The position numbers and the translations under genes are program-made. Below, one piece after another: positions 50,787 to 64,000 of a DNA stretch of 64,000 nucleotides (position 1 is its first letter; every line of letters begins with the position of its first letter). The notes under the pieces were generated by a model that made no database searches, was not told the DNA's origin, and saw nothing but the letters and a program-made list of their open reading frames with translations. The stretch covers positions 416,001 through 480,000 of the forward strand of contig CAVTJJ010000004.1 in the NCBI GenBank assembly GCA_963735035.1, written 5' to 3'. The DNA comes from an uncultured candidate division Zixibacteria bacterium. GTDB taxonomy: Bacteria; Zixibacteria; MSB-5A5; GN15; FEB-12.

Positions 50787-53290
50787 ATGAAAGCAGTCGT
50801 CATGGCCGGCGGTTTCGGGACCCGACTCCGCCCGCTCACGATAAATACACCCAAACCGATGGTGCCGATCGGCAATGTCCCGATGATGGAACATGTGGTC
50901 GGGCTGCTGGCGCGCCACGGTCTCACCGATGTCACATCGCTGCTCTATTTTCATCCTGAGAGTATTCGCAACTATTTCGGTGACGGCTCCAGGGTCGGCG
51001 TCCAGATGGCTTACGAAAAGCCGAGCGATGATCTCGGTACCGCCGGGGCAGTTCGCTATGCGTTGGGCGAGCCCCGCGAACCGGTGCTGGTGATATCCGG
51101 CGACCTGGTGACCAATTTTGATCTGGCCGAAGCCATAAAATGGCACAAAGAAAAGAAGGCCGACGCCACTATCCTGCTCACTCGCGTAGAGAATCCGATC
51201 GCTTACGGCATTGTCATCACTGACGATGACGGCCGAATTGTCGAATTCCTCGAAAAGCCCACCTGGGGCGAGGCGTTCTCAGACACCATCAATACTGGCA
51301 TTTATATTCTCGAACCTCAGGCGGCGGCGCTGATCCCCAAGGACGAGAATTTTGATTTTTCCCAGAACCTGTTCCCGCTCATGCTCAAGAACGGCATGAA
51401 GCTTCACGGGAAGATTATGGACGGGTACTGGAAGGATGTGGGCAACACCGACGAATATTTCCGCGCCCACTTCGATCTCTTTGCCGGCGACCTGACTTTG
51501 CCGCTCAAGAACAGCAAGGAAGAAATTGACGGGGCCGTAGTCTACAAGGGTCGCAATGTTCGTCTCGGTCAGGATGTGAAATTCTCCGGCACGGTGCTTC
51601 TGGGTGATGACGTCAATGTGGGTGACGGCGCTCAACTCTACAACTGTGCCCTCGGCCAACGGGTAAGGGTGGGTTCGCGCAGTAGTATCAAAGACTCGGT
51701 AGTCTGGTCGGATACGGCCATAGGCAGCGAGTGCCGCTTCTCGCGCGCCCTGGTTTGTGCCGCAGTACAGGTCGGCGACAATGTTGAGCTGGCCGATCAC
51801 TCGATCGTTTCCGACGAATGCGTGGTCGGCGATTCCGCGACGGTTCGGGCTAACTGCAAGATCTGGCCGGGGAAGAAAGTCGACGAGGGCGCGATTGTGT
51901 CATCGTCGCTGGTCTGGGGCGACGCCTGGAACCGGGAGCTGTTCACCGATTCGAAAATAACCGGTCTGGCGCTGACCGAGATTACGCCGGAGATGGCGGT
52001 CAAGGTTGGGGCGGCGTTCGGCGCTACGCTCGGTCAGGGCAGCGCTGTCGTGACGAGCCGCGAAGTTTCCGACGTGGCCCAGTTGCTCCGTCGTTCCGTG
52101 ATGTCCGGCCTGATGGCGTCCGGGGTCAATGTTTATGACCTCGAGACTCTCCCCGTGCCGGTTGTGCGGTATGCACTGAAGAAAGGCGACTACGCTGCCG
52201 GCATGTATGTTCGCCACAACCCGGTCGACTATCGTTATCTCGATTTCATATTCTTCCACGGCTCGGCGCTCGACATGCCGACCTCTCAGCTCAAGAAAGT
52301 TGAGCGCAATTATTTCGGCGAAGACTTCAAGCGCGCTTCGATCAGCGAGATCGGTCACCTGGACTACCCGCAGCGGGTGTTGCGTGACTACCAGGCTGAT
52401 TTCATGGCCGAGGTTGATGTCGATATCATCCGCGAGGCCGGGTTCAAAATTGTGGTCGATTACGCCCACGGATCGTCGTCCGAGGTATTCCCCGATCTGT
52501 TCTCACGCCTGGGCATCTCCAGCACCGAGTTGAATTCCCACCCGAATCCGCTGAAATCGTCGGTGCCGCCCGAAGAGTCAGCCCGTGCTACCGTGCAGCT
52601 TGTCGGCCATCGTGCGCTCGCTCAACGCCGACGTGGGCTTCCGCGTCAATCCGGCCGCCGAGAAACTGACCGTGGTGGACGAAAACGGCCGCCCGTTGGA
52701 CGATCAGACGCTCTTGATGCTGGTAACTGAGCTTTATATTCGTACGCATCATCCCGAGAAGATCGCTGTTCCGGTGGCGGCGTCGATGGGGATCGAAGAG
52801 ATCGCCGACCGCTACGGAGTACAGGTCGTGCGGGTGACGAACGACCATCAGGCGATGATGAAAGTCCACATGTCGGGTGAGGTTGATTTTGTCGGCGGTA
52901 CGCGCGGCGGCTTTGTCATGTCGACGATTCCACAGCGGTGCCGACGCCATTTTCGCACTGGTGAAACTGCTTCAAATGATGGCGCAGACCCGGGGCCGCC
53001 TGGGACACCTTCGCACCAACTACGAACACCTGGTGCGGCAAACCGTCTCGGTACCCTGTCCCTGGTCGCGCAAGGGGACGGTCATGCGCCGACTGATCAC
53101 CGAGTCGGTGAACAAGCGACGGCAATTGATCGACGGCGTCCGCATTATCGAGGATGACGGCTGGGTGTTGATCGCGCCGGACCGGTTCAACGCGGCGTTT
53201 AATATCTTTGCCGAATCGAAGTCGCGTAAGGTGACCGAATCGCTTATCAGCAATTATAAGTCGGTGGTGGAGAACTGCCAGGAAGCGTAG
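50787..53290 (+). CDS. Mannose-1-phosphate guanylyltransferase fused to phosphomannomutase-like domains, two apparent +1 frameshifts
   Basis: MAGGFGTRLRPLT..PKPMVP, EKP, DTINTGIY, hexapeptide repeats, then PMM-like core. Shifts near 52600 and 52925. Confidence 0.85.
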
Positions 53291-53316
53291 GGCAGGTCGC
53301 CGGCAAAAAGGCATGG

Positions 53317-53347
53317 GCCGCCGACCTCCCACGGTCGGCGGTTTCTT
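53317..53347 (+). terminator. Terminator-like hairpin
   Basis: GCCGCCGACC-TCCCAC-GGTCGGCGGT followed by TTCTT. Confidence 0.65.
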
Positions 53348-53348
53348 G

Positions 53349-54426
53349 TTATTGTGTGCGAGGGGCTGGTGCAGGCGGTGCAAAGAACGATGTTCCCATG
53401 ACGCTGTCAAAACGCTGGCCGACGTCTCGATCCGTGAGATTTCGAGTGTTGCACCCACGCATCCGGATGGCGTTATCGGTGGTATTGAAGTAACATAGGC
53501 GAGTCCGCTCAGTATTGAAGCAGGTACCGAAGATCTGCAAGCCACTCGAGTCGTTTCGCGGCACCACCACGTCAAAGTCGTACTTGAGCGTATCGCCGGT
53601 AGCAAGATCGAACTGGAATGACGTGTCGCCGAGGCATCTGACATGATCGGTGAGTATTCTGATGCGAACATCCTTGCACATCGCATCCCCTCGAGCAAGG
53701 AGTCTCAGACGAACCACGCTGTCCGTGGCCACCATGTGAATCGGATTTATGTCCATGTCGAACATGTTCCTCGCCGTATCGATAACTCCCCCGTCCGCGG
53801 CATTGGGGATTGGCCCCGCCGAAATGTGGTTCCATACGGCCTCCTGATCTGCCCGGAACCTCGCATCTAGCTGCTTCATTGCCACAGCTCTCGGCCTCTG
53901 CTTCTGCCCGCGCTCGCGCCTGTGGGCTGAACCGAAAGTCGTACGGATAACATCTAACTGAGTCCTGGGTCTGCGACGAACGAGTAATGTGCCACCAGTG
54001 CGATCGCTTACGCCGGACCACCCTAACTAAGTTCAAACGCGCTTGTGTCAGACGCCGGAACGACGAGGTCGATGTAGTATGTGAGAGTATCTCCGACCTT
54101 ACCCGGAAAGGTCCAATTAGTGGCGAGGTGCATTGAAGCTTGTCCAGATTTGTCTAAGGTTACCGATGATGTCGCTGCATTCAACCTTGGGTACGACGGT
54201 GAGTTCAAGTCTCAATGGTCCCGGCCGAGTGGGCGAAGTGACAACCTGATCGCCGCTAGACTTCAAAGGGACCATTCTCAACCAACGGCGGAAATCCGCC
54301 GTCCGTTCCATATTGTGGAATGGTATCATCTGAGAATTCGACTACTGCCGAATCTGTAAGCACTTGCCCTACCAAGCCGCACACCGCCCATAGAGATGCT
54401 GACAAGAAGATCGCACGCCAGTTCAT
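53349..54426 (-). pseudogene. Fragmented secreted hypothetical protein with an internal duplication (pseudogene or error-rich sequence)
   Basis: AGGAGG plus ATG 54426 (MNWRAIFLSASLWAVCGL). Pieces in several frames, including GDTLTYYIDLVVPASDTS and GDTLKYDFDVVVPRNDSS. Confidence 0.5.
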
Positions 54427-54714
54427 GATTCCCTCCTATGTCGTTCCCGTTTTCGATACCCCTGCATTACTCTGATCACTATGCGACCACACATCTGAAA
54501 CCCCGGTCTCCGGGCTATCATCCTTGTTCCTCAGATTCTGCCGCTAATTGGAGACAACCTTCCTGCCTTACTATACACCCCTTTCTGCAGCCTGCCAAGC
54601 GAATAACCGCGTCGTGGGCCTACAATAGTCTGACAAATCTCCCTATTGCCTCGGAGTATCTCGAATTGTATCTTCATCGATCCGGTAACTCGCCTCTTTT
54701 GAAGGATTGACGCA

Positions 54715-56114
54715 ATGGACTACAAAATTCGAACCAAAGTTTCCCGCATACTGATCGATGACGCCGTCCCGGCGGATACGGCTATTACTGTTCTTGGCTG
54801 GGTCAAGACGGTCAGGGTATCCAAGGCCGTGGCTTTTGTCGAGATCAACGACGGCTCCTGCATGGGGAATCTTCAGGCGGTTGTGGCCGATCCAGACAAA
54901 TACCCGGTGCTGGAAAAGTTGCTCACCGGGGCGTCGGTGCGGGTCAAAGGGAAATTGGTGGCGTCGCAGGGCCAGGGCCAGAAATACGAACTGGCGGTCG
55001 AGACCCTCGATCTGATCGGCGAGGCCGACCCGACCTATCCGCTTCAGAAGAAACGCCACACGTTTGAATATCTTCGCGAGATCGCCCATCTCCGGCCGCG
55101 CACCAATACGTTCGGGGCGGTCGGCCGGATGCAGCTCCAAGATCGCCTACGCCATTCACAAGTACTATCAGGAACGCGGGTTCTTCTATGTCCATACGCC
55201 GATGATTACGGCGTCGGACTGCGAAGGAGCCGGCGATATGTTCCGCGTGACCACGCTCGATCTGGACAACATCCCGCGCAAGGAAGGCAAGATCGATTGG
55301 GACGCTGATTTCTTCGCCTCGGAAACGTACCTGACCGTGTCGGGGCAGCTCGAGGGCGAGCTGATGGCGACTGCGCTGGGGGATATCTACACGTTCGGGC
55401 CGACTTTCCGCGCCGAGAACTCCAACACCAGTCGCCATGCCTCGGAGTTCTGGATGATCGAGCCGGAGATGGCCTGGGCGGAGATCGATGACAACATGGA
55501 TCTGGCCGAGGATTTCCTGAAATACCTGTTCCGGTTTGCGCTCGAAGAATGCGCCGACGACATGGCGTTCTTCAACCAGTGGGTGGACAAAGATGTCATT
55601 CGGACGCTCGAGAGCGTGGTCAATTCGCAGTTCGAGCGGATCACTTATACGCAGGCGATTGACATTCTCAACAAGTCGGGCGAGAAGTTTGAGTACCCGA
55701 CCGAATGGGGCTCAGATCTTCAGAGCGAACACGAACGCTTCCTGACCGAGAAGAAAATCGGGCGACCGGTAATAGTGTCCGACTATCCCGGAGAAGATCA
55801 AGTCGTTCTATATGAGAATGAACGAGGACGGCAAGACGGTCGCCGCGATGGATGTGCTGGTGCCGAAAGTGGGCGAGATCATCGGCGGGTCACAGCGCGA
55901 GGAACGCTACGACGTGCTCATGGACCGGATCAAGGCGAAGGGGATGACCGGCATGGAGAACTACTACTGGTATACTGATATTCGTCGCTGGGGTTCGGTG
56001 CCGCACGCCGGGTTCGGACTGGGGTTCGAACGCGCGATGATGTACATCACGGGCATTTCGAATATCCGCGATATCCTGACTTTCCCGCGAGTTCCGCGGT
56101 GGGCGAAGTTCTAG
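54715..56114 (+). CDS. asnS: Asparagine--tRNA ligase, two apparent +1 frameshifts
   Basis: [75 protein letters not shown]. Shifts near 55132 and 55787. Confidence 0.96.
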
Positions 56115-56128
56115 GTTGGGTCTATGGT

Positions 56129-56188
56129 GGTTGGTGTACGTCCTCGTGCACCAACCTGTCTTGTAGGGCAGGTCCGCTTCGAACCTGC
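56129..56188. repeat. Two REPs at the left edge of the CRISPR cassette
   Basis: GGTTGGTGTACGTCCTCGTGCACCAACC, and GTCTTGTAGGGCAGGTCCGCTTCGAACCTGC which matches 41025-41055 with compensatory stem changes. Confidence 0.7.
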
Positions 56189-56198
56189 ACTTCCACAC

Positions 56199-56308
56199 AA
56201 GAAAAGACGCCCGTTCTGGACGGGCGTCAAGGGTGCTCCGTAGAGCAAAACCTTCGAGACGGTTGTCTCTTACTGAGACTTGACTAACAACCGCCGCTTG
56301 AGTACATT
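56199..56308 (-). ncRNA. tracrRNA
   Basis: Minus strand: 37-nt anti-repeat AATGTACTCAAGCGGCGGTTGTTAGTCAAGTCTCAGT, nexus-like GAGAC-AACC-GTCTC, hairpin AAGG..TGCTC-TACG-GAGCA.CCTT, terminator GACGCCCGT-CCAGA-ACGGGCGTC-TTTTCTT. Confidence 0.9.
56280..56308 (+). promoter_or_regulatory. Predicted cas9 promoter inside the anti-repeat
   Basis: TTGACT-17 nt-TACATT, ending 45 nt before the cas9 ATG. RBS AAGGGGA at 56342-56348. Confidence 0.6.
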
Positions 56309-56314
56309 ACTGGC

Positions 56315-56343
56315 TAAATACACTACGTTCGACCACCTGTCAA
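56315..56343 (-). promoter_or_regulatory. Predicted tracrRNA promoter
   Basis: TTGACA-17 nt-TATTTA (imperfect -10). Predicted +1 falls at the first base of the anti-repeat (about 56308). Confidence 0.5.
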
Positions 56344-56353
56344 GGGGAAATAC

Positions 56354-59300
56354 ATGAACCACGACAACGGTGAATCCAAACATCTGGGAATCGACCTTGG
56401 CCCAAATTCCATCGGGTGGGCGTTGGTTGAAGCGCCAGACAACAATACTCATCAGCTTGTCGTATCGGGTGTTCGCGTCTTTGAAGCGGGACTTGATAAA
56501 CTAGAATCCGACGGCAAAGGGGAATCCCGCAATGTCGCCCGACGTGCCGCGCGTCAGTCGAGGCGGGGAATTGAAAGAAGAGGCAGAAGGCTCACAAAAA
56601 TAGCCAACATTCTGCAGCGAGCGGGCCTTTTACCTGAAGGTGATCTGACCGACAGCGAGATCAGGCACAAGATATTGACGGAGCTTGATCTCAAGGTGGG
56701 CAATCCATACTCACTTCGTGCGCGTGCCCTTGATGAGAAATTGTCCAAACACGAACTCGGTCGCGCCTTGTTCCATTTGGCGCAAAGACGCGGCTTCCTC
56801 AGTAACCGCAAATCGGCGCCCAAGAAAGACGACGAGACTGGCAAAGTCAAAGCAGGTATAAGCCAGTTGAAGAAAGATATTGAAGCGTCTGGCTCGCGCA
56901 CACTCGGCGAGTATTTCAGTCGCATAGATCCGTTTCAACACCGGATACGGACGCACTACACGCATCGCTCGATGTATGAGCATGAGTTCAATCTCATCTG
57001 CGAGTCACAGAGTCGTTTTCATGCAGATGTATTGACAGATGATCTTAGAAAGATTCTTCACAAGGCGATCTTCTTTCAGCGGCCGCTCAAGAGCCAATCG
57101 CATCTGATTGGCAAATGCGAACTGGAACCGAAATACCGCCGCGCCCCTTGGGCGTTGCTCTGTGCCCAGCAATTCCGGTATCTGCAAACAATCAACAATC
57201 TGCGAGTGCTTGATGTCCCGAACCGCGAATTTCCGGAGTTGACCCCGGCCGAGCAATTCGCATTGGCAGAAAGGCTGGAATATCAGGAAGAGATGACTTT
57301 CGGTGCGGCGCGCAAGTTGTTGAACCTGCCCAAAACAAGCAAATTCAGCATTGAATTGGGCGGCGAGAAGAAGATCAAAGGCAACAGGACTGCGGCCTGC
57401 CTTGCCAAGATATTCGGCCTGGAGCGATGGCAAGCCATGACATCGGAAGAGCGCGACGCGGTGGTGGAAGACTGGCGAAGCATTGTCAAGGAAGAGACGC
57501 TCAAGAAACGCGGCATGAACAAATGGGGTCTTGACGAAGTCGCCGCAGAAGAACTGAGCCACCTGAATCTTGAAGAGGGCTATTGCTCAATGTCGCGTCA
57601 GGCTATCGCAAAACTACTGCCGCGACTTAGCTGTGGTGAAGCCCTGCAAACCGCTATCAAAACCGTGTACCCGGAACGCTTTGAACGCGTTGGTGCGGCT
57701 GTTGATACCCTGCCTCCAGTACGGGAATACTTCCCCTCGTTGCGGAACCCAATAGTGGAACGCGCTCTTACGGAATTGCGGCAAGTAGTGAACGCCATTG
57801 TTCGCGAGCATGGAAGACCCGCCGTGATTCGAGTTGAGCTGGCACGCGAACTGAAACAGCCGGCGAAGAGTCGCGAGGATACTATCAAGCGGATGCGCGC
57901 CAACGAAAAAGACCGGGCGAAGGCGGCGGAAAGAATACTTGAGGAAGCGAGAATCGCCAATCCGTCTCGGAGTGATATCCTCAGGGTTTTGTTGGCTGAG
58001 GAATGTGAGTGGACTTGCCCTTACACCGGCAGGCATTTCGGTATGACTGAAATCGTCGGAGATTCGCCGCAATTCGATATCGAGCATATCATCCCGCTCC
58101 ATAGGTGCCTTGACGACTCTTACATGAACAAGACCCTCTGCTATGCCGACGAAAACCGAAACCGCAAACGTGATCGAACTCCGTTTGAGGCCTACGCAGG
58201 CACCCCACAGTGGGATGAAGTTGTCGCACGGGTAGGAAAGTTCAAGGGCACGGCGGCAAGAGCCAAGCTGCAGCGCTTTCAGATGAAGCCTGAGGAGGTT
58301 GGGGCGTTGCTCGACAATTTTACTTCCCGGCAGTTAAACGATACCGCTTATGCCTCCCGAATGGCGAAGGAATATCTCGGACTTCTATTCGGCGGTCAGG
58401 ACAGCGACGGCATTGATGCCTCCAGTCATCGTCGCGTGCAGTGTACCAACGGCCAGGTCACAGCTTTTCTGCGCAATGTCTGGAGCCTCAACAGCATTCT
58501 TGGCGACGGACCCCGCAAGACCCGCGACGACCACCGCCATCACGCTGTTGACGCCGTCGTGGTCGCCCTGACCGATGCCGGCGCGGTCAAACGTCTGAGC
58601 GACGCGGCTTCTCGGGCCAAAATCGAGCGGCGGCGGCAGTTCGGCAAGGTGCCCCTACCGTGGGAGACATTCGATCAGGATGTTCGGCAGAGCATCGACA
58701 ACCTGGTCGTTTCGCACCGGCTCGATCACCGGGTAAGAGGTGCGTTTCACGAGCAGACTTTTTATGGTCGCCCAAGCCTCGGAGACGATGGCAAGCAGTA
58801 CGTACACACTAGGAAGCCGATTGAGAGAATCTCAGCCAAGGACATCAAAGACATTGCCGACAAGGCGGTGCGTGAATGTATCGAAAAGGCGCTCAGTGTC
58901 CTGGGGCAATCGAATCCTGCTGATGCTTTCAAAGACCCGGCCAGTCATCCGATCCTCAGCGGTGGAAACGACACCAGCAGGCCGATTCATCGGGTGCGAT
59001 TGAAGTCCTCTCTGAGGACTTTCGAGATCGGTTCCGGGCATCGTTTGAGGCATGTGGTACCAGACCGCAACCACCACATGGAGGTCGTGGAATTGCTCGA
59101 TGATAATGGGAACACCACCGGTTGGGAAGGGCATGTCGTTGATCTGTTTGAGGCGCGCCGTCGACTCGACCGGCGTGAACCGGTCATCAAGAAAGACCAC
59201 GGGTCGGGGAAATGCTTTCTATTTTCTCTGGCCAACGGCAACGTTATTGAATTGGACCAAGACGATGGTTCTCGTGGACTTTGCATCGTCCGAACCATCG

Positions 59301-59461
59301 AGACAAGTTCCAATATTAGGTGGGTTAGTATAAGAGATGCCCGGAAGTTGGCTGGTCGATCTAAAGCCGGTGAGACGGCTCGGCCGGATCCACTCCGAAA
59401 GAAGAACTGCTGCAAAGTAACAGTCGATCCGCTCGGCCGAGTCCGGCGAGCGCGTGATTAG
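56354..59461 (+). CDS. cas9: Type II-C CRISPR endonuclease Cas9 (1035 aa)
   Basis: RuvC-I LGIDLGPNSIGWA, Arg-rich bridge helix, HLAQRRGFLSNRK, RuvC-II IRVELARE, HNH FDIEHIIP..DDSYMNKTLC...N, QLNDTAY, RuvC-III DHRHHAVDA, C-terminal KVTVDPLG. Confidence 0.98.
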   Translation: MNHDNGESKHLGIDLGPNSIGWALVEAPDNNTHQLVVSGVRVFEAGLDKLESDGKGESRNVARRAARQSRRGIERRGRRLTKIANILQRAGLLPEGDLTDSEIRHKILTELDLKVGNPYSLRARALDEKLSKHELGRALFHLAQRRGFLSNRKSAPKKDDETGKVKAGISQLKKDIEASGSRTLGEYFSRIDPFQHRIRTHYTHRSMYEHEFNLICESQSRFHADVLTDDLRKILHKAIFFQRPLKSQSHLIGKCELEPKYRRAPWALLCAQQFRYLQTINNLRVLDVPNREFPELTPAEQFALAERLEYQEEMTFGAARKLLNLPKTSKFSIELGGEKKIKGNRTAACLAKIFGLERWQAMTSEERDAVVEDWRSIVKEETLKKRGMNKWGLDEVAAEELSHLNLEEGYCSMSRQAIAKLLPRLSCGEALQTAIKTVYPERFERVGAAVDTLPPVREYFPSLRNPIVERALTELRQVVNAIVREHGRPAVIRVELARELKQPAKSREDTIKRMRANEKDRAKAAERILEEARIANPSRSDILRVLLAEECEWTCPYTGRHFGMTEIVGDSPQFDIEHIIPLHRCLDDSYMNKTLCYADENRNRKRDRTPFEAYAGTPQWDEVVARVGKFKGTAARAKLQRFQMKPEEVGALLDNFTSRQLNDTAYASRMAKEYLGLLFGGQDSDGIDASSHRRVQCTNGQVTAFLRNVWSLNSILGDGPRKTRDDHRHHAVDAVVVALTDAGAVKRLSDAASRAKIERRRQFGKVPLPWETFDQDVRQSIDNLVVSHRLDHRVRGAFHEQTFYGRPSLGDDGKQYVHTRKPIERISAKDIKDIADKAVRECIEKALSVLGQSNPADAFKDPASHPILSGGNDTSRPIHRVRLKSSLRTFEIGSGHRLRHVVPDRNHHMEVVELLDDNGNTTGWEGHVVDLFEARRRLDRREPVIKKDHGSGKCFLFSLANGNVIELDQDDGSRGLCIVRTIETSSNIRWVSIRDARKLAGRSKAGETARPDPLRKKNCCKVTVDPLGRVRRARD

Positions 59462-59476
59462 CCTGCCCAAACCATA

Positions 59477-59967
59477 AATGTACTCAAGCGGCGGTTCGTG
59501 TCAAGCCCCAGCTGTCTCTACCTTCTCACGCCGTGGGGCGTAAATGTACTCAAGCGGCGGTTAGCTGTCAAGTCCCAGCTGGACTACGTATTGATTGCCC
59601 TGTTGCTGGAATGTACTCAAGCGGCGGTTAGTGTCAAGTCCCAGCGCCGTGGGGCGTACAGGCGCAATCGTCAAAATGTACTCAAGCGGCGGTTCGCGTC
59701 AAGTCCCAGCTCAGTACGTATTCCATGATTAAGTCCTTTCAATGTACTCAAGCGGCGGTTCGCATCAAGTCCCAGCGCAGTCGGTGGGCTGATTCGGTAT
59801 CTACCAATGTACTCAAGCGGCGGTTCACGTCAAGTCCCAGCTCACCGTTCACCTGTCCGCTACCTAGTCGAATGTACTCAAGCGGCGGTTTGCGTCAAGT
59901 CCAGCCGACTTGAAGGGATCAGTTATGACCAACGCAATGTACTCAAGCGGCGGTTCGCGTCAAGTCC
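59477..59967 (-). CRISPR. CRISPR array, 8 repeats (about 36 nt) and 7 spacers (29-30 nt)
   Basis: Plus-strand repeat AATGTACTCAAGCGGCGGTTnnnnTCAAGTCCCAGC at 59477, 59543, 59610, 59675, 59741, 59806, 59871 and 59936 (last truncated). Minus orientation inferred from tracrRNA complementarity and the 3' -10 box typical of II-C. Confidence 0.97.
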
Positions 59968-60068
59968 GCCTGACCTACGATTATCCCATTGAACCGCTTC
60001 GCTTCAGCCTCTTTTGGCCCCCTCAAACAATTCTAAATCCTACCCCTCGCTTTGCCGATATAAGAGAC

Positions 60069-60869
60069 ATGGGCTACAAGTCTGACTTACGCCAGGTCCT
60101 GATTGCTGTCTTCGGGCTCGCTCTGAGCGCGCTCGTGATCGGCTGCAATGGCGCGCCGACCAAGAGCAGCAACGAGGACAAATACCGCGTCGACGGTCTG
60201 GTTGTACAGAACCTGAACGTCGACACGGCGTTCATTGCCGCCCGATTCGCCCGCAACGACACCTCGATTACCAACGCCTCGATCAAACTCGCCGGTACGC
60301 CTCTGGGCTATTTCGCGTCGCTTCGAGGCATCCTCGCGGCCTATCAGTCCTGGCTGAAACCGGCAGATTCGCTGGCGGGATCAAGTGTCTATCTTCGTGT
60401 CGCCGACGCCAGTCGCTTCACTGATAGTCTGCCGCTGGGTATCGTAGGCACTTTCGGCCTGACCGACAACTTCCAGCCGCCCAACCATCATCTCCAGGGT
60501 ATGACTAATTATGTCTCTCTGGAATGGACCGCGGCCGCCAACGCGGATAGCTACGTGCTAGCCGCCGTCAAGACGTCACTGGTCGGCACCGGAGCAGGCT
60601 ACAGCGCCCAGGTGACAGCGACCGGCGTGGCCGGAACTATTCCCGCGGATGCCTTCATGAATCCAAGCACCAACCTTCCCGACACCGGGCTTTACAATAT
60701 CTATGTATATGCCTTCAACGACGCCCCCGACTCGGCTTTAGCGACCAAACTCCTGCCGGTGCCGTGGCCAATTCAGGTGACCGAGAATATCGCTCGAACG
60801 TCTCTGAAGGGTCGGTTCGGGTCTATCACCGTGGCGCTCAAGGACACGGTTCGGGTGCTCGCTCAGTAG
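60069..60869 (+). CDS. Hypothetical lipoprotein
   Basis: MGYKSDLRQVLIAVFGLALSALVIGC lipobox. The true start is downstream of the array. Confidence 0.75.
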   Translation: MGYKSDLRQVLIAVFGLALSALVIGCNGAPTKSSNEDKYRVDGLVVQNLNVDTAFIAARFARNDTSITNASIKLAGTPLGYFASLRGILAAYQSWLKPADSLAGSSVYLRVADASRFTDSLPLGIVGTFGLTDNFQPPNHHLQGMTNYVSLEWTAAANADSYVLAAVKTSLVGTGAGYSAQVTATGVAGTIPADAFMNPSTNLPDTGLYNIYVYAFNDAPDSALATKLLPVPWPIQVTENIARTSLKGRFGSITVALKDTVRVLAQ

Positions 60870-60934
60870 CTTCCAGGCTTCAGGGCTTATTGGAAGAAGT
60901 CTCCTCAAGTCACTTTCATGCATTTGCTATATCA

Positions 60935-61050
60935 GCCGGCAGATGTGGGCATCTGCCGGGCACCTGGTGAGAATCGCTGTCGGGCAGATGTGGGCCCGCC
61001 GCGGCGGGCCGGGCACTAGTCAGGCATCTGCAAGTCATCTGCCGGGCGCT
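60935..61050. repeat. REP cluster
   Basis: CCGGCAGATGTGGGCATCTGCCGGGCAC and degenerate copies. Confidence 0.65.
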
Positions 61051-61109
61051 AGTTCTTCCCAATCCGCATTTTAGTTGCCCGTACGGATCGTCACCGATAG
61101 GTTCGTTTC

Positions 61110-62045
61110 ATGGCGGACATGAACGAACTTATCAGCCGATTACGGCAGCTCGATACCGAAAAGGTCAATCCGAACACGGTCGATATCGATCGACTGTCAC
61201 CCGTCGAAATCGCGCGTAAGATAAATGCCGAGGACAAGACGGTTGCAACTGTAGTCGAAGCTGCTCTTGAGCCGTTAGCGAGTGCGGCGCAAGTCTTTGC
61301 CGAAACCCTCAAGAACGGCAAGCGAGTCTTCTATGTCGGCGCGGGGACTTCCGGGCGGTTGGGGGTGCTCGACGCCGCCGAATGTCCGCCGACTTTCGGT
61401 ACCGATCCCAAACAGATAATAGGCTTGATCTCGGGCGGGTACGAGACCTTGATCCTCTCCAAAGAAGGGGTTGAAGACGATGTTCGAGCGGCTGTTGTGG
61501 ACCTTCAGTCTCACCATCTGGCTACGGGCGATTTCGTGATCGGGCTGGCTGCCTCCACTCGAACCCCGTACACGCTTTCGGCTTTGCGATACGCCAAGAC
61601 CTGTGGCTGCCGGACCGCGTTCATCGTATGCAATCTCGCGGGTGGAATAGAAATCAGACCGGACATACTTATAGAATTGCCGGTGGGACCGGAAGCCATT
61701 ACCGGTTCGACTCGTATGAAATCGGGCACGGCCGAGAAGATGGCGCTGAACATCATTTCTACCACCGCCATGGTGCTCTTGGGGAAGACCTACGGAAATC
61801 TGATGGTTGATCTTCAGGCGCGCTCCGAAAAGCTGGCGGCAAGATCACGCAAGATTCTTATCGAGCTGCTGCAAGTCGATCTGCCCAAGGCCGAGGAACT
61901 GCTGCAGCTTTCCGGTGGATCGGTCAAACTGGCGATAGTTATGCACTGGCAGAAATGCGACCGGGCCGAAGCGGAGAAGCGCCTGGCGCAAGCGGGGGGG
62001 TTCATTTCGCGATTGACCAAAGTGCCGCCGGCACAATTGCCCTGA
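61110..62045 (+). CDS. murQ: N-acetylmuramic acid 6-phosphate etherase
   Basis: TEKVNP, GAGTSGRLGVLDAAECPPTFG, GPEAITGSTRMKSGTA, GNLMVD. Confidence 0.96.
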   Translation: MADMNELISRLRQLDTEKVNPNTVDIDRLSPVEIARKINAEDKTVATVVEAALEPLASAAQVFAETLKNGKRVFYVGAGTSGRLGVLDAAECPPTFGTDPKQIIGLISGGYETLILSKEGVEDDVRAAVVDLQSHHLATGDFVIGLAASTRTPYTLSALRYAKTCGCRTAFIVCNLAGGIEIRPDILIELPVGPEAITGSTRMKSGTAEKMALNIISTTAMVLLGKTYGNLMVDLQARSEKLAARSRKILIELLQVDLPKAEELLQLSGGSVKLAIVMHWQKCDRAEAEKRLAQAGGFISRLTKVPPAQLP

Positions 62046-62135
62046 CGAAAATTCAACTGTCATCCAGGTGCAGTCAGGCATCTCGCTACGAGATGCCCAA
62101 CCACACAGATCCGGTCTCAAAGATTCAAGCCGCTA

Positions 62136-62330
62136 CTAGCAGCACTTGGCGTTGTCAGAGCCACCGCAGCAGGACTGCATCTTCTCTTTGATCCGCTTGA
62201 CCTTCTCCGGGTCGTTGCTGGTCAGATTGATACAGATACCGCCGTCAGTCTCTTCAACCTTGCAGGACAGTCCTTCGCACATGTTCTCGGCGGACGTCCC
62301 ACAGCAGATGGTTACTTTCTTCTCAGTCAT
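62136..62330 (-). CDS. Small cysteine-rich protein (64 aa, 9 Cys)
   Basis: AAAGGAG RBS, three CC pairs, directly downstream of an ArsR gene. Confidence 0.7.
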   Translation of the reverse strand: MTEKKVTICCGTSAENMCEGLSCKVEETDGGICINLTSNDPEKVKRIKEKMQSCCGGSDNAKCC

Positions 62331-62390
62331 GATACTTCGCTCCTTTCATAGATGAATAGGTTAATGTCTATATGACCGGTCACAAAAAAA

Positions 62391-62675
62391 TCACTTTAGC
62401 TCCATCTTTATCGACAACACCTTCATCTGTTGCCCGCAACAATCGACAACCGCCTCGCGATTGAAGCGGTAGTACACCTCGCGTCCGCGTTTGTCGCTTG
62501 TCACAAGGCCGGCTCGCTTCAGAATGTCCAGATGATGCGACACCGACGGTTGGGTAATGCTGAACCGACTGCAGATATCCGACACGCACAACTCCTCATT
62601 CTTGAGCAACTCAAGAATTTTGAGCCGGGTGGGGTCACCCATCGCGAAGAAGGCCTGACAGCATTTGTTATCCAT
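62391..62675 (-). CDS. ArsR/SmtB-family regulator
   Basis: FFAMGDPTRLKILELL, ELCVSDI, TQPSVSHHLDILKRAGLV, KRGREVYY, with N- and C-terminal CC pairs. Confidence 0.93.
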   Translation of the reverse strand: MDNKCCQAFFAMGDPTRLKILELLKNEELCVSDICSRFSITQPSVSHHLDILKRAGLVTSDKRGREVYYRFNREAVVDCCGQQMKVLSIKMELK

Positions 62676-62690
62676 AGTCAATTCTCATCA

Positions 62691-62706
62691 ATAGACATCT
62701 GTCTAT
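62691..62706. promoter_or_regulatory. Candidate ArsR operator
   Basis: Perfect 7-2-7 inverted repeat ATAGACA-TC-TGTCTAT just upstream of the ArsR start. Confidence 0.65.
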
Positions 62707-62973
62707 ACGTCAATATATCGACTTCGGTTTCGAAAATCAAAGGGAAAACTGTAAACGGTCCCAAAAATATTTCGAGGTCGCGTCCCGGGGGGTTCAATTT
62801 CGGCCTGGCGTACCGACAGGTACGCCGAAACGACCCTCCGACGACGAGGTTTCTTTGCTTCAAGTGTTGTCCTTCCAGCAAGTTAGGACTGTATCAACGG
62901 GCCGGCACGAAGCTTGATCCCGGTATTAGCGAAAAGCAAAATTAATTCCTCGATGGAAAGGAGATAGTCCGCA

Positions 62974-64000
62974 ATGTTCAGAAGAATAGTAATACCGTTC
63001 GCGCTGACGGCGCTGTCGATTTGGGCCGCCGGCTGCTCGAAAAACCCGGCGAATCCGGCCGCTGACGCGACTCCGGCCGCGACCCAGGATTTCGGAGGCT
63101 ACACAGCCACTAATGAGGCTCCGGCTTTCGGAGATCAGGAACTACTGAATACTCAGGGCTCGGGAGAAGAAGTGTCCGACCCGATCTTAAGCAGTCCGAC
63201 CACCCTGGAAGTCGTCAATGACGTCAATGCCGGCATCTTCCATTTCCGGGCTGTCTGGGGACGGATACCGTACGATTCCACGATTACAACTGTCACCGAC
63301 TGGACCGGCTCACTGACAATTTCTCGCGGCGCCATCGTGTTGCGGAGAGTGATTCAATTTGAGCTGGGTCAGGATTACATCCTGCCGCGCACCGACCGTA
63401 CCCTGCTACAGTGGGTATCGTTCACCGGGCCGCATCATGACGGCGTAGCGGTCGATCTGTTTGTGCCGCCCGCGCCGCCGACTTTCGACAGCAGCTGGGT
63501 TCCTGCTGACGGTGACTCTGTGCTCGTGATCGACACAATACCGGCTACACCTGTAACGCTTACTTTCGCTACCGGTCCTTACACCAGGACCTTCACACTG
63601 GCTGAATTGGCCTCGCTGGATGAAGTGATTACGCTTGAAGACGGCAACAGTGTGGCGTTTCAGAGTATCCAGATATTCCGCAATGTCTGTCCGCGCGGAG
63701 TACTCGCAGGTAAGTGGGGATATGACGAAGAGGGCAAGGGCATATTCAAAGGATTCTGGATGTCTGGCGCCGGCCATCTGGTTGGCCATCTCGAAGGCAA
63801 CTTCGGTCAGGACAGTCTGGGCGTGAATGTGTTCTTCGGCAAGTGGATTGATGCCTCAGGTCAGTTCCAGGGATTCCTTCGTGGCACCTGGGGCCACAAG
63901 CCTCCGACTGCCAATGACGACTCCCGCGGGAAAGGGCCGGGTGGATGGTTTGCCGGCGGAATTTTCGACGGGAACGGCAATGAGATCGGAGTACTGGCCG
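62974..64000 (+). CDS. Hypothetical lipoprotein, runs off the window
   Basis: Not in the ORF track. AAGGAG RBS plus MFRRIVIPFALTALSIWAAGCSKNP, continuing QDFGGYTATNEAPAFGD. Frame appears open toward the window end. Confidence 0.75.
   Translation, partial: MFRRIVIPFALTALSIWAAGCSKNPANPAADATPAATQDFGGYTATNEAPAFGDQELLNTQGSGEEVSDPILSSPTTLEVVNDVNAGIFHFRAVWGRIPYDSTITTVTDWTGSLTISRGAIVLRRVIQFELGQDYILPRTDRTLLQWVSFTGPHHDGVAVDLFVPPAPPTFDSSWVPADGDSVLVIDTIPATPVTLTFATGPYTRTFTLAELASLDEVITLEDGNSVAFQSIQIFRNVCPRGVLAGKWGYDEEGKGIFKGFWMSGAGHLVGHLEGNFGQDSLGVNVFFGKWIDASGQFQGFLRGTWGHKPPTANDDSRGKGPGGWFAGGIFDGNGNEIGVLA

Follow-up and report, generated by a model that had tools for sequence, protein, structure and literature searches.

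The closest known counterparts of the locus described here are the type II-C CRISPR-Cas loci of Neisseria meningitidis and Campylobacter jejuni, which combine a compact Cas9 with a tracrRNA gene located upstream of cas9 on the opposite strand. Transcription of their arrays runs towards the cas genes and starts from promoters located within the repeats (PMC5965381; PMC12080349). Acquisition takes place at the cas-proximal repeat, and a degenerate repeat without a spacer is found as well (PMC12080349). In a survey of 364 non-redundant II-C arrays, 5% of the ordinary repeats were mutated; among the spacer-less 'extra' repeats the share was 60%, with the mutations mostly within the first 15 nt (PMC12080349). 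A II-C Cas9 without cas1 and cas2 is already known in Campylobacter, where the orphan cas9 of some C. coli and of CampyICE1 is accompanied by short arrays and a tracrRNA; the limited spacer diversity was read as a lack of acquisition (10.1101/2021.06.01.446523). A precedent for a domesticated role is the scaRNA of Francisella novicida, a diverged repeat which still pairs with the tracrRNA and can direct Cas9 to a fixed target (PMC8730458). The scaRNA acts by partial complementarity to a host gene.

The locus described here lies in a window of 64,000 nt, the whole stretch of DNA that was analysed, from an uncultured Zixibacteria bacterium. It is a type II-C effector module that lost cas1-cas2 and consists of cas9, a divergent tracrRNA and an array with seven spacers. 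The module shares with the N. meningitidis and C. jejuni loci the compact Cas9, the position and strand of the tracrRNA, the reading of the array towards the cas gene, the cas-proximal polarity, the degenerate spacer-less repeat and, as a prediction, promoters inside the repeats. It differs from them in that the genome contains neither cas1 nor cas2 and the array abuts cas9. The features of the module are the following.

56354..59461, plus strand: cas9, 1035 aa, type II-C-like, intact reading frame.
About 56198..56308, minus strand: predicted tracrRNA with anti-repeat, nexus-like hairpin, second hairpin and intrinsic terminator; the ends are predicted.
56273..56308, minus strand: anti-repeat of 36 nt, which contains the 20-nt repeat core as an exact reverse complement; pairs with every repeat.
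56315..56343, minus strand: predicted sigma70-like promoter for the tracrRNA, with TTGACA and TATTTA spaced by 17 nt; 7 nt further on, the anti-repeat begins.
56280..56308, plus strand: candidate promoter-like site, TTGACT-17-TACATT, on the strand opposite to the anti-repeat and pointing at cas9.
59477..59971, minus strand: CRISPR array of eight repeats and seven spacers, with minus-sense crRNAs as judged by the strand of the anti-repeat.

The cas9 product carries the Pfam domains RuvC_III, HNH_4 and Cas9_a and scored 703 bits against the NCBIfam model TIGR01865 (cut-off 100). Its best solved relative was 6jdq (E 1.3e-77), the type II-C enzyme Nme1Cas9; the RuvC and HNH motifs of both proteins could be aligned. 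An ortholog of equal length in a genome of the same genus (G067) exhibited 77% identity and a dN/dS of 0.07, and 58% of the four-fold sites differ between the two genes. The presence of a Cas9 with RuvC and HNH, a predicted tracrRNA with an anti-repeat and an adjoining repeat-spacer array places the locus in type II.

The predicted tracrRNA contains a short hairpin (GAGAC-AACC-GTCTC) and an intrinsic terminator at 56228-56206 that is followed by a T-run. Upstream of cas9, 10 related loci show the same architecture, and compensatory pairs occur in both of the hairpins; the first 57 nt of the tracrRNA are identical to those in G067. An Rfam search of positions 52000-64000 matched no family. The minus-strand anti-repeat resembles the plus-strand repeat, which indicates that the crRNAs are minus-sense and read towards cas9. 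The promoter with the hexamer TATTTA was read directly from the sequence and is absent from the list of the promoter scan, because the scan required a T as the last base of the second hexamer.

The loss of the adaptation genes was evident from the genome and from related loci. In the whole assembly (6 contigs, 3.61 Mb, 96.9% complete) neither cas1 nor cas2 gave a match. Among 108 genomes of the same family, seven encode a relative of this Cas9, the present genome included; in one of them (G076) it is broken, and the five others with a full-length ortholog all have the gene order cas9-cas1-cas2-array. Among four further related loci, located on genome and metagenome contigs, cas1 lies beside the array in every case and a match to cas2 was obtained in three; in locus L003 one frame was tested for Cas2 and gave no match. 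The distance between the cas9 stop codon and the first repeat is 1338 nt in G067, where it is filled by cas1 and cas2, and only 15 nt in the present locus. The gene order of the orthologous loci and the filled gap in G067 thus identify the present locus as a member of the II-C lineage without its former adaptation module. The operon by which subtype II-C is recognized, made up of cas9, cas1 and cas2 only and lacking csn2 and cas4, is itself not present, since the latter two of its three genes are missing.

The array extends to 59971, versus 59967 in the first-pass annotation of this DNA. Its repeats are 35-37 nt long (n=8) and follow each other at a spacing of 65-67 nt. The 20-nt core AATGTACTCAAGCGGCGGTT has exactly eight copies on the plus strand, one at the start of each repeat (59477, 59543, 59610, 59675, 59741, 59806, 59871 and 59936) and identical in all of them; its reverse complement has a single copy at 56289-56308, within the anti-repeat of the tracrRNA. 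The core is followed by 4-5 variable nt, which are given for each repeat below, and by the remainder of the repeat, which reads TCAAGTCCCAGC on the plus strand with the exceptions of R1, R7 and R8. This exact search confirmed the starting observation of the first-pass annotation, namely that the first 20 nt are identical in the eight repeats and that the variation begins directly behind them.

59477..59512, minus strand: R1, adjoins cas9, presumed newest; variable bases CGTG; T>C at position 30; duplex intact on co-folding.
59543..59579, minus strand: R2, 37 nt; AGCTG with one extra base; loop predicted to be nearly closed; indel doubtful.
59610..59645, minus strand: R3; AGTG.
59675..59710, minus strand: R4; CGCG, the consensus repeat.
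59741..59776, minus strand: R5; CGCA; closing pair changed to U-G; -35-like hexamer changed to TTGATG.
59806..59841, minus strand: R6; CACG.
59871..59905, minus strand: R7, 35 nt; TGCG; one C lost from a CCC run in the lower stem.
59936..59971, minus strand: R8, spacer-less 'extra' repeat; CGCG; first 4 nt (crRNA sense) degenerate, promoter-like part intact.
59513-59542, 59580-59609, 59646-59674, 59711-59740, 59777-59805, 59842-59870 and 59906-59935, minus strand: spacers 1 to 7, 29-30 nt each.

The degenerate end of R8 marks it as the spacer-less 'extra' repeat, a pattern described for type II-C arrays (PMC12080349). Part of the variation is shared between neighbours: R1, R2 and R3 have an A at crRNA position 14 in common, and at position 16 R2 and R3 both carry a T, as does G067.

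Such heterogeneity is exceptional among the relatives of this array. The repeats of the related arrays were compared in the same way, with the following numbers of variant repeats.

L012 (G067): 0 of 19.
L013: 1 of 21; spacer-less end repeat.
L014: 0 of 18.
L015 (G068): 3 of 11.
L016: 1 of 13; degenerate end repeat.
L001: 0 of 3.
L003: 0 of 8.
L019: 0 of 9.
L026: 0 of 57.
G067, second contig: 0 of 9.

Thus, five of 159 repeats were variant in the nine related arrays (5/168 with the second G067 contig), compared to seven of eight in the present array (7/8 vs 5/159: Fisher P = 1e-8). L021 was excluded from these counts, as it overlaps with L026 on one contig, and the small arrays L051 (0/4 variant) and L052 (0/3 variant) were left out; L053 was dropped due to false anchors in its listing, and L054 gave no repeats. 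The difference to the published survey is equally pronounced: six of the seven spacer-bearing repeats are mutated here, in contrast to about 5% of ordinary repeats in the survey (PMC12080349), which corresponds to P = 1e-7 at the published rate. The array hence combines two properties of a frozen locus, the lack of acquisition genes in a 96.9%-complete genome and repeats that are heterogeneous, unlike those of the nine related arrays. The view of the first-pass annotation that the array is old and non-expanding is supported by the absence of cas1 and cas2, by the relatives that have retained cas1 and by the uniformity of the related arrays.

An apparent heterogeneity could also arise from the assembly or from base-calling, for instance through consensus errors at a methylated motif in a long-read assembly, the repeats being identical in reality. 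Sequence errors do seem to occur in the vicinity. The only asparaginyl-tRNA synthetase-like gene, which lies nearby, is spread over three frames, with a CCCGG run at one of the breaks, and a gene for a fused nucleotidyl-transferase/phosphomutase is interrupted as well. Between copies of one IS, 0-6 gaps per kb were counted, and the difference in R7 is a homopolymer deletion. In view of these indel problems we do not trust the deletion in R7 and the insertion in R2. Should the two be real, not every unit of the array has been perfectly preserved. The substitutions differ from the indels in several respects. A miscall that depends on the sequence context should recur, but the eight sites have identical flanks (20 nt on one side, at least 9 nt on the other) and show six sequences. 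The 160 nt of core sequence and the 3.1-kb reading frame of cas9 showed no error. The motif CGCG is no rarer than in the short-contig genome G067, and this lack of depletion excludes a genome-wide miscall rate that would be able to strike six of eight sites. Moreover, the sharing of variants between neighbouring repeats tracks the order of acquisition, and one of the shared bases is the G067 state. The three repeats with a common variant are those nearest to cas9, which is hard to explain by sequencing error and fits the polarity of II-C acquisition, in which new spacers enter at the cas-proximal repeat (PMC12080349). An artefact is therefore considered very improbable, and these arguments suggest that the repeat substitutions are real. 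The substitution pattern as such was confirmed in the assembled sequence; the two indels, of R2 and R7, are doubtful.

The substitutions are not distributed at random over the repeat. Each repeat was co-folded in its minus sense with the anti-repeat, and all eight formed an upper stem of 20 bp, one internal loop with 3 nt on the crRNA side and 4 nt on the tracrRNA side, and a lower stem of 12 bp, with duplex energies from -51 to -58 kcal/mol. On the plus strand, positions 21-23 of the repeat form the loop and position 24 the closing pair. The co-folding agrees with the first-pass annotation in that three variable positions face the only internal loop of the duplex and that the two substitutions in paired positions lead to G-U pairs. 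In R1 the second change (A>G in crRNA sense) converts an A-U into a G-U pair, and in R5 the change C>U (crRNA sense) turns the closing pair into U-G. The missing base of R7 would result in a one-base bulge on the tracrRNA side of the lower stem. Six of the eight substitutions fall within 3 of 36 positions (P = 8e-6); when variants shared by neighbours are counted once, four of six events are located in the loop (P = 6e-4). Only 29 of the 108 single substitutions possible in the consensus repeat keep the pairing, and all eight observed substitutions are among them, with P = 2.7e-5 if all rates are equal and P = 4e-3 if transitions are favoured tenfold. Counting shared variants once, six out of six were tolerated (P = 4e-4 to 6e-3). 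Pairs that tolerate G-U were changed less often than the loop, suggesting either that G-U pairs are not neutral or that the loop mutates faster.

The same distribution was found between arrays. The position of the loop is constant across nine pairs of repeat and tracrRNA, and variation is highest in the columns of crRNA positions 14-16, where 3, 4 and 4 states occur. Differences in the stems of these nine pairs are matched in the cognate anti-repeat. Where arrays agree in the 20-nt core and in the last 12-13 nt, their only difference is the loop triplet, which reads on the plus strand CGC here, AGC in G067, TAC in L019 and GTT in L026. The comparison with orthologous arrays, a point already raised by the first-pass annotation, thus locates the differences in the loop triplet and favours a relaxed constraint at these bases. 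Within the array of G068, the three internal variants consist of one loop change and two pairing-compatible A-to-G changes, and no CGCG is involved.

Cell-free experiments with engineered variants have demonstrated that C. jejuni Cas9 tolerates deviations in the crRNA if pairing is kept. The variants in the present array obey the same rule; they form a natural set within one array. Among the papers that were searched, none was found to describe loop-confined repeat variation within an array of an adaptation-less II-C locus. Loop-confined repeat heterogeneity was likewise not found described for CampyICE1 (10.1101/2021.06.01.446523).

The clustering of changes might alternatively reflect a local mutational hotspot. 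The tetranucleotide CGCG would mutate much more rapidly than the adjoining sequence, as could result from deamination of methylated cytosines, and growth of the array would have stopped recently, with no need for selection on the crRNAs. Seven of the eight substitutions indeed lie in CGCG, and five of these seven are CpG transitions; the four possible transition products (TGCG, CACG, CGTG and CGCA) are all present; the genome encodes two C5-cytosine methyltransferases, and a 13-nt overlap between spacers 1 and 3 that is still identical would suit a young array. Several observations speak against a hotspot. The ratio of observed to expected CGCG came to 0.852 here, compared to 0.859 in 400 kb of G067, with no surplus of the deamination products. 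In diverged duplicates of the genome, 43 of 350 CGCG sites varied, compared to 403 of 2664 sites in other CpG and 673 of 4979 other G/C sites, and CGCG had the lowest share of transitions of these site classes. Copies of near-identical IS were less suitable for this purpose: 24 of 151 pairwise mismatches fell in CGCG, which makes up 1.5% of the columns, but these mismatches represent a handful of sites that were recounted, to which a single copy at the end of a contig contributed several, and the test with diverged duplicates was used instead. Neither miscalling of CGCG nor a CGCG hotspot thus found support genome-wide. Furthermore, two of the changes in the array are C>A transversions and one change lies outside of CGCG, the same three positions vary among arrays whose loops lack CGCG, and the three internal variants of G068 are compatible with pairing although CGCG plays no part in them. 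We regard a hotspot as an unlikely explanation and infer that selection rather than mutation bias shaped the variant pattern.

The repeats also contain promoter-like sites. On the minus strand they show TTGAC(G/A), 16 nt (17 in R2) and TACATT, which resembles a sigma70 promoter. The promoter scan listed seven of the eight repeats, while R5 with the hexamer TTGATG remained under the threshold; the shuffle count of the scan carries little weight, because the repeat copies are not independent of each other. Across nine loci, TTG is conserved in all nine, the A at position 12 and the C at position 13 in eight each, and TACATT also in eight. The variant shared by R1-R3 creates the consensus hexamer TTGACA. 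As one of the three loop bases closes the -35-like hexamer and the other two follow directly behind it, all three are free in the putative promoter as well. Neisseria repeats have an extended -10 only, and the repeats of the present array differ from them in having both a -35-like and a -10-like hexamer. Every repeat probably acts as a promoter, with the crRNAs being read from the minus strand towards cas9.

As long as an array grows, every acquisition duplicates the repeat adjoining the cas genes and old units are lost, which keeps the repeats alike. Once this turnover has stopped, each repeat would gather mutations of its own, and only changes that disrupt neither pairing nor promoter would persist, in this case at the three loop bases and as two transitions to G-U pairs. 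We therefore favour, with some reservation, the view that the locus is an adaptation-less II-C module with arrested array turnover, in which the persisting repeat changes spare both the pairing with the tracrRNA and the promoter. The absence of a target for any of the spacers was counted against it.

The heterogeneity may, on the other hand, date from the active phase of the array, brought about by variants of the template repeat or by recombined blocks, and the loss of cas1-cas2 would then be recent and unrelated. Several observations are in line with such an origin: R1-R3 share one variant and R2-R3 a second one that equals the G067 state, the related arrays with their differing loop triplets are possible donors, and spacers 1 and 3 derive from overlapping protospacers, suggesting a late burst of acquisition. 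The remaining repeats do not fit. R5, R6 and R7 each have a private single change from CGCG, so that a single line of templates would need back-mutations, and a mosaic would need six different donors; in active relatives, moreover, only 5 of 168 repeats were variant. An origin during active growth is accordingly judged improbable as an explanation for the array as a whole. The variant of R1-R3 probably did spread during growth of the array, and not every difference therefore postdates the stop of growth.

Under the favoured account of arrested turnover, the repeats have still been mutated almost only at unpaired bases, which suggests that the guides were kept usable, and crRNAs would have been made and loaded. 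The first-pass annotation had proposed purifying selection on each crRNA. This proposal is strengthened by the preserved pairing of all eight substitutions (P 3e-5 to 4e-3) and by the loop triplet being the fastest part of the repeat across nine loci, but selection on each individual crRNA remains an inference, given that a local hotspot retains some probability and that the variant of R1-R3 probably spread while the array was growing. The loop distance between the repeats amounts to 0.14-0.30 substitutions per site, a range that rests on the tiny numbers of 3 to 6 changes over 24 sites. For comparison, the four-fold sites of cas9 in the two congeners have diverged by about 0.55 per lineage, and the loop distance equals a quarter to half of this value. 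The spacers provide a further measure. A stretch of 13 nt from one protospacer is common to spacers 1 and 3, and the identity of this overlap has a probability of P = 0.001-0.03 if both spacers drifted freely at the rate of the loop. Hence, either the spacers are also constrained or the loop evolves faster than ordinary neutral sites. With unconstrained spacers, the identity would count against a prolonged period of neutral drift.

A target of the guides was sought in several collections. For the 30-mer of spacer 4, metagenome, genome and viral contigs contained no exact match, and viral contigs contained none for the 24-mers of spacers 1, 2, 3, 5, 6 and 7; these searches of contigs were restricted to exact matches, which diverged targets would escape. 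Among phage records the array matched only lysin genes of mycobacteriophages with E = 0.5, which we judged to be chance, and plasmid records gave no match. The 108 genomes of the family contained only the related arrays and 17-20-mers at chance level. Within the genome itself, the best self-matches comprised 15-22 nt with mismatches (E at least 0.18) and none was above chance, and exact self-matches of 10-12 nt anchored in the seed were as frequent as for shuffled spacers. With no target found, the locus differs from CampyICE1, which sits on a conjugative element and has spacers matching known plasmids (10.1101/2021.06.01.446523). It also differs from the scaRNA of F. novicida, as the spacers showed no self-match, anchored in the seed or overall, above that of shuffled spacers. 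The persistent target or domesticated role suggested by the first-pass annotation consequently found no backing in protospacers or in self-matches above chance. It is conceivable, if rather doubtful, that each of the seven guide units has been retained over a time comparable to a considerable fraction of the divergence of the congeners. The locus would then represent a hard-wired Cas9 with fixed guides and a lasting purpose, directed at a persistent mobile element or serving a host function not detectable by sequence matching, and not a fading immune memory.

If the variants are real, the array amounts to a natural mutational scan, on a small scale, of the scaffold of a Cas9 guide. Three bases of the crRNA emerge from it as free and the others as bases that must pair, in a Cas9 family without a characterised member. 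The bases that are free for both the duplex and the predicted promoter of the repeat would be useful for guide design in this family. The array also offers a rare internal clock for the retention of an adaptation-less Cas9 locus and thereby bears on the question why such loci persist.

On the plus strand, spacer 1 ends in the same 13 nt (59530-59542) with which spacer 3 begins (59646-59658). Both spacers thus derive from one target, from overlapping protospacers with an offset of 17 nt.

Variant repeats were also present in the array of the family genome G068 (L015:2487-3275), which is interrupted by a masked stretch (N) and still accompanied by cas1-cas2. Three of its 11 repeats are variants, and all of them are compatible with pairing to the tracrRNA: one differs in the loop, and the other two have an A>G substitution that results in a G-U pair.

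Two metagenome contigs, L023 and L025, each contained one orphan copy of the repeat found in the window's array, with the loop triplet CCT:

L023:1501-1580, minus strand of the locus, orphan repeat copy
L025:1501-1580, minus strand of the locus, orphan repeat copy

No array was seen adjoining either copy. An inverted copy of the repeat's middle part follows about 12 nt past the orphan repeat in both loci and thus forms a hairpin with it, which resembles the fusion of a repeat with a short anti-repeat.

The asparaginyl-tRNA synthetase-like gene at 54715-56114, the only one of its kind in the genome, is divided among three reading frames and hence contains two frameshifts, one of them located at a CCCGG run. 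These are most likely indel errors of the assembly and bear on the trust placed in its single-base indels. Another frame switch was observed near 52585-52730 in a fused nucleotidyl-transferase/phosphoglucomutase-like gene (50787-53157), whose third phosphomutase domain falls in a different frame.

The source genome carries at least five copies of a 1.4-kb insertion sequence, four of which share 100% identity:

C3:619375-620770, insertion sequence copy
C4:3736-5131, insertion sequence copy
C4:338843-340237, insertion sequence copy
C4:851846-853242, insertion sequence copy
C4:986985-988380, insertion sequence copy

Contig C3 ends in a partial, more divergent copy. Another family, of 1.07 kb, comprises about nine copies with 93-99.8% identity, including one that lies shortly upstream of where the window starts. 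The same genome encodes two C5-cytosine DNA methyltransferases:

C4:497602-498606, methyltransferase gene
C6:431766-432845, methyltransferase gene

On the strand opposite the tracrRNA anti-repeat, a promoter-like TTGACT-17-TACATT was found at 56280-56308 (+), as in the repeats. It is directed at cas9, which begins 45 nt downstream. Given this arrangement, the promoters of cas9 and the tracrRNA may overlap and drive divergent transcription, and the cas9 promoter may be a by-product of the likeness between repeat and anti-repeat.
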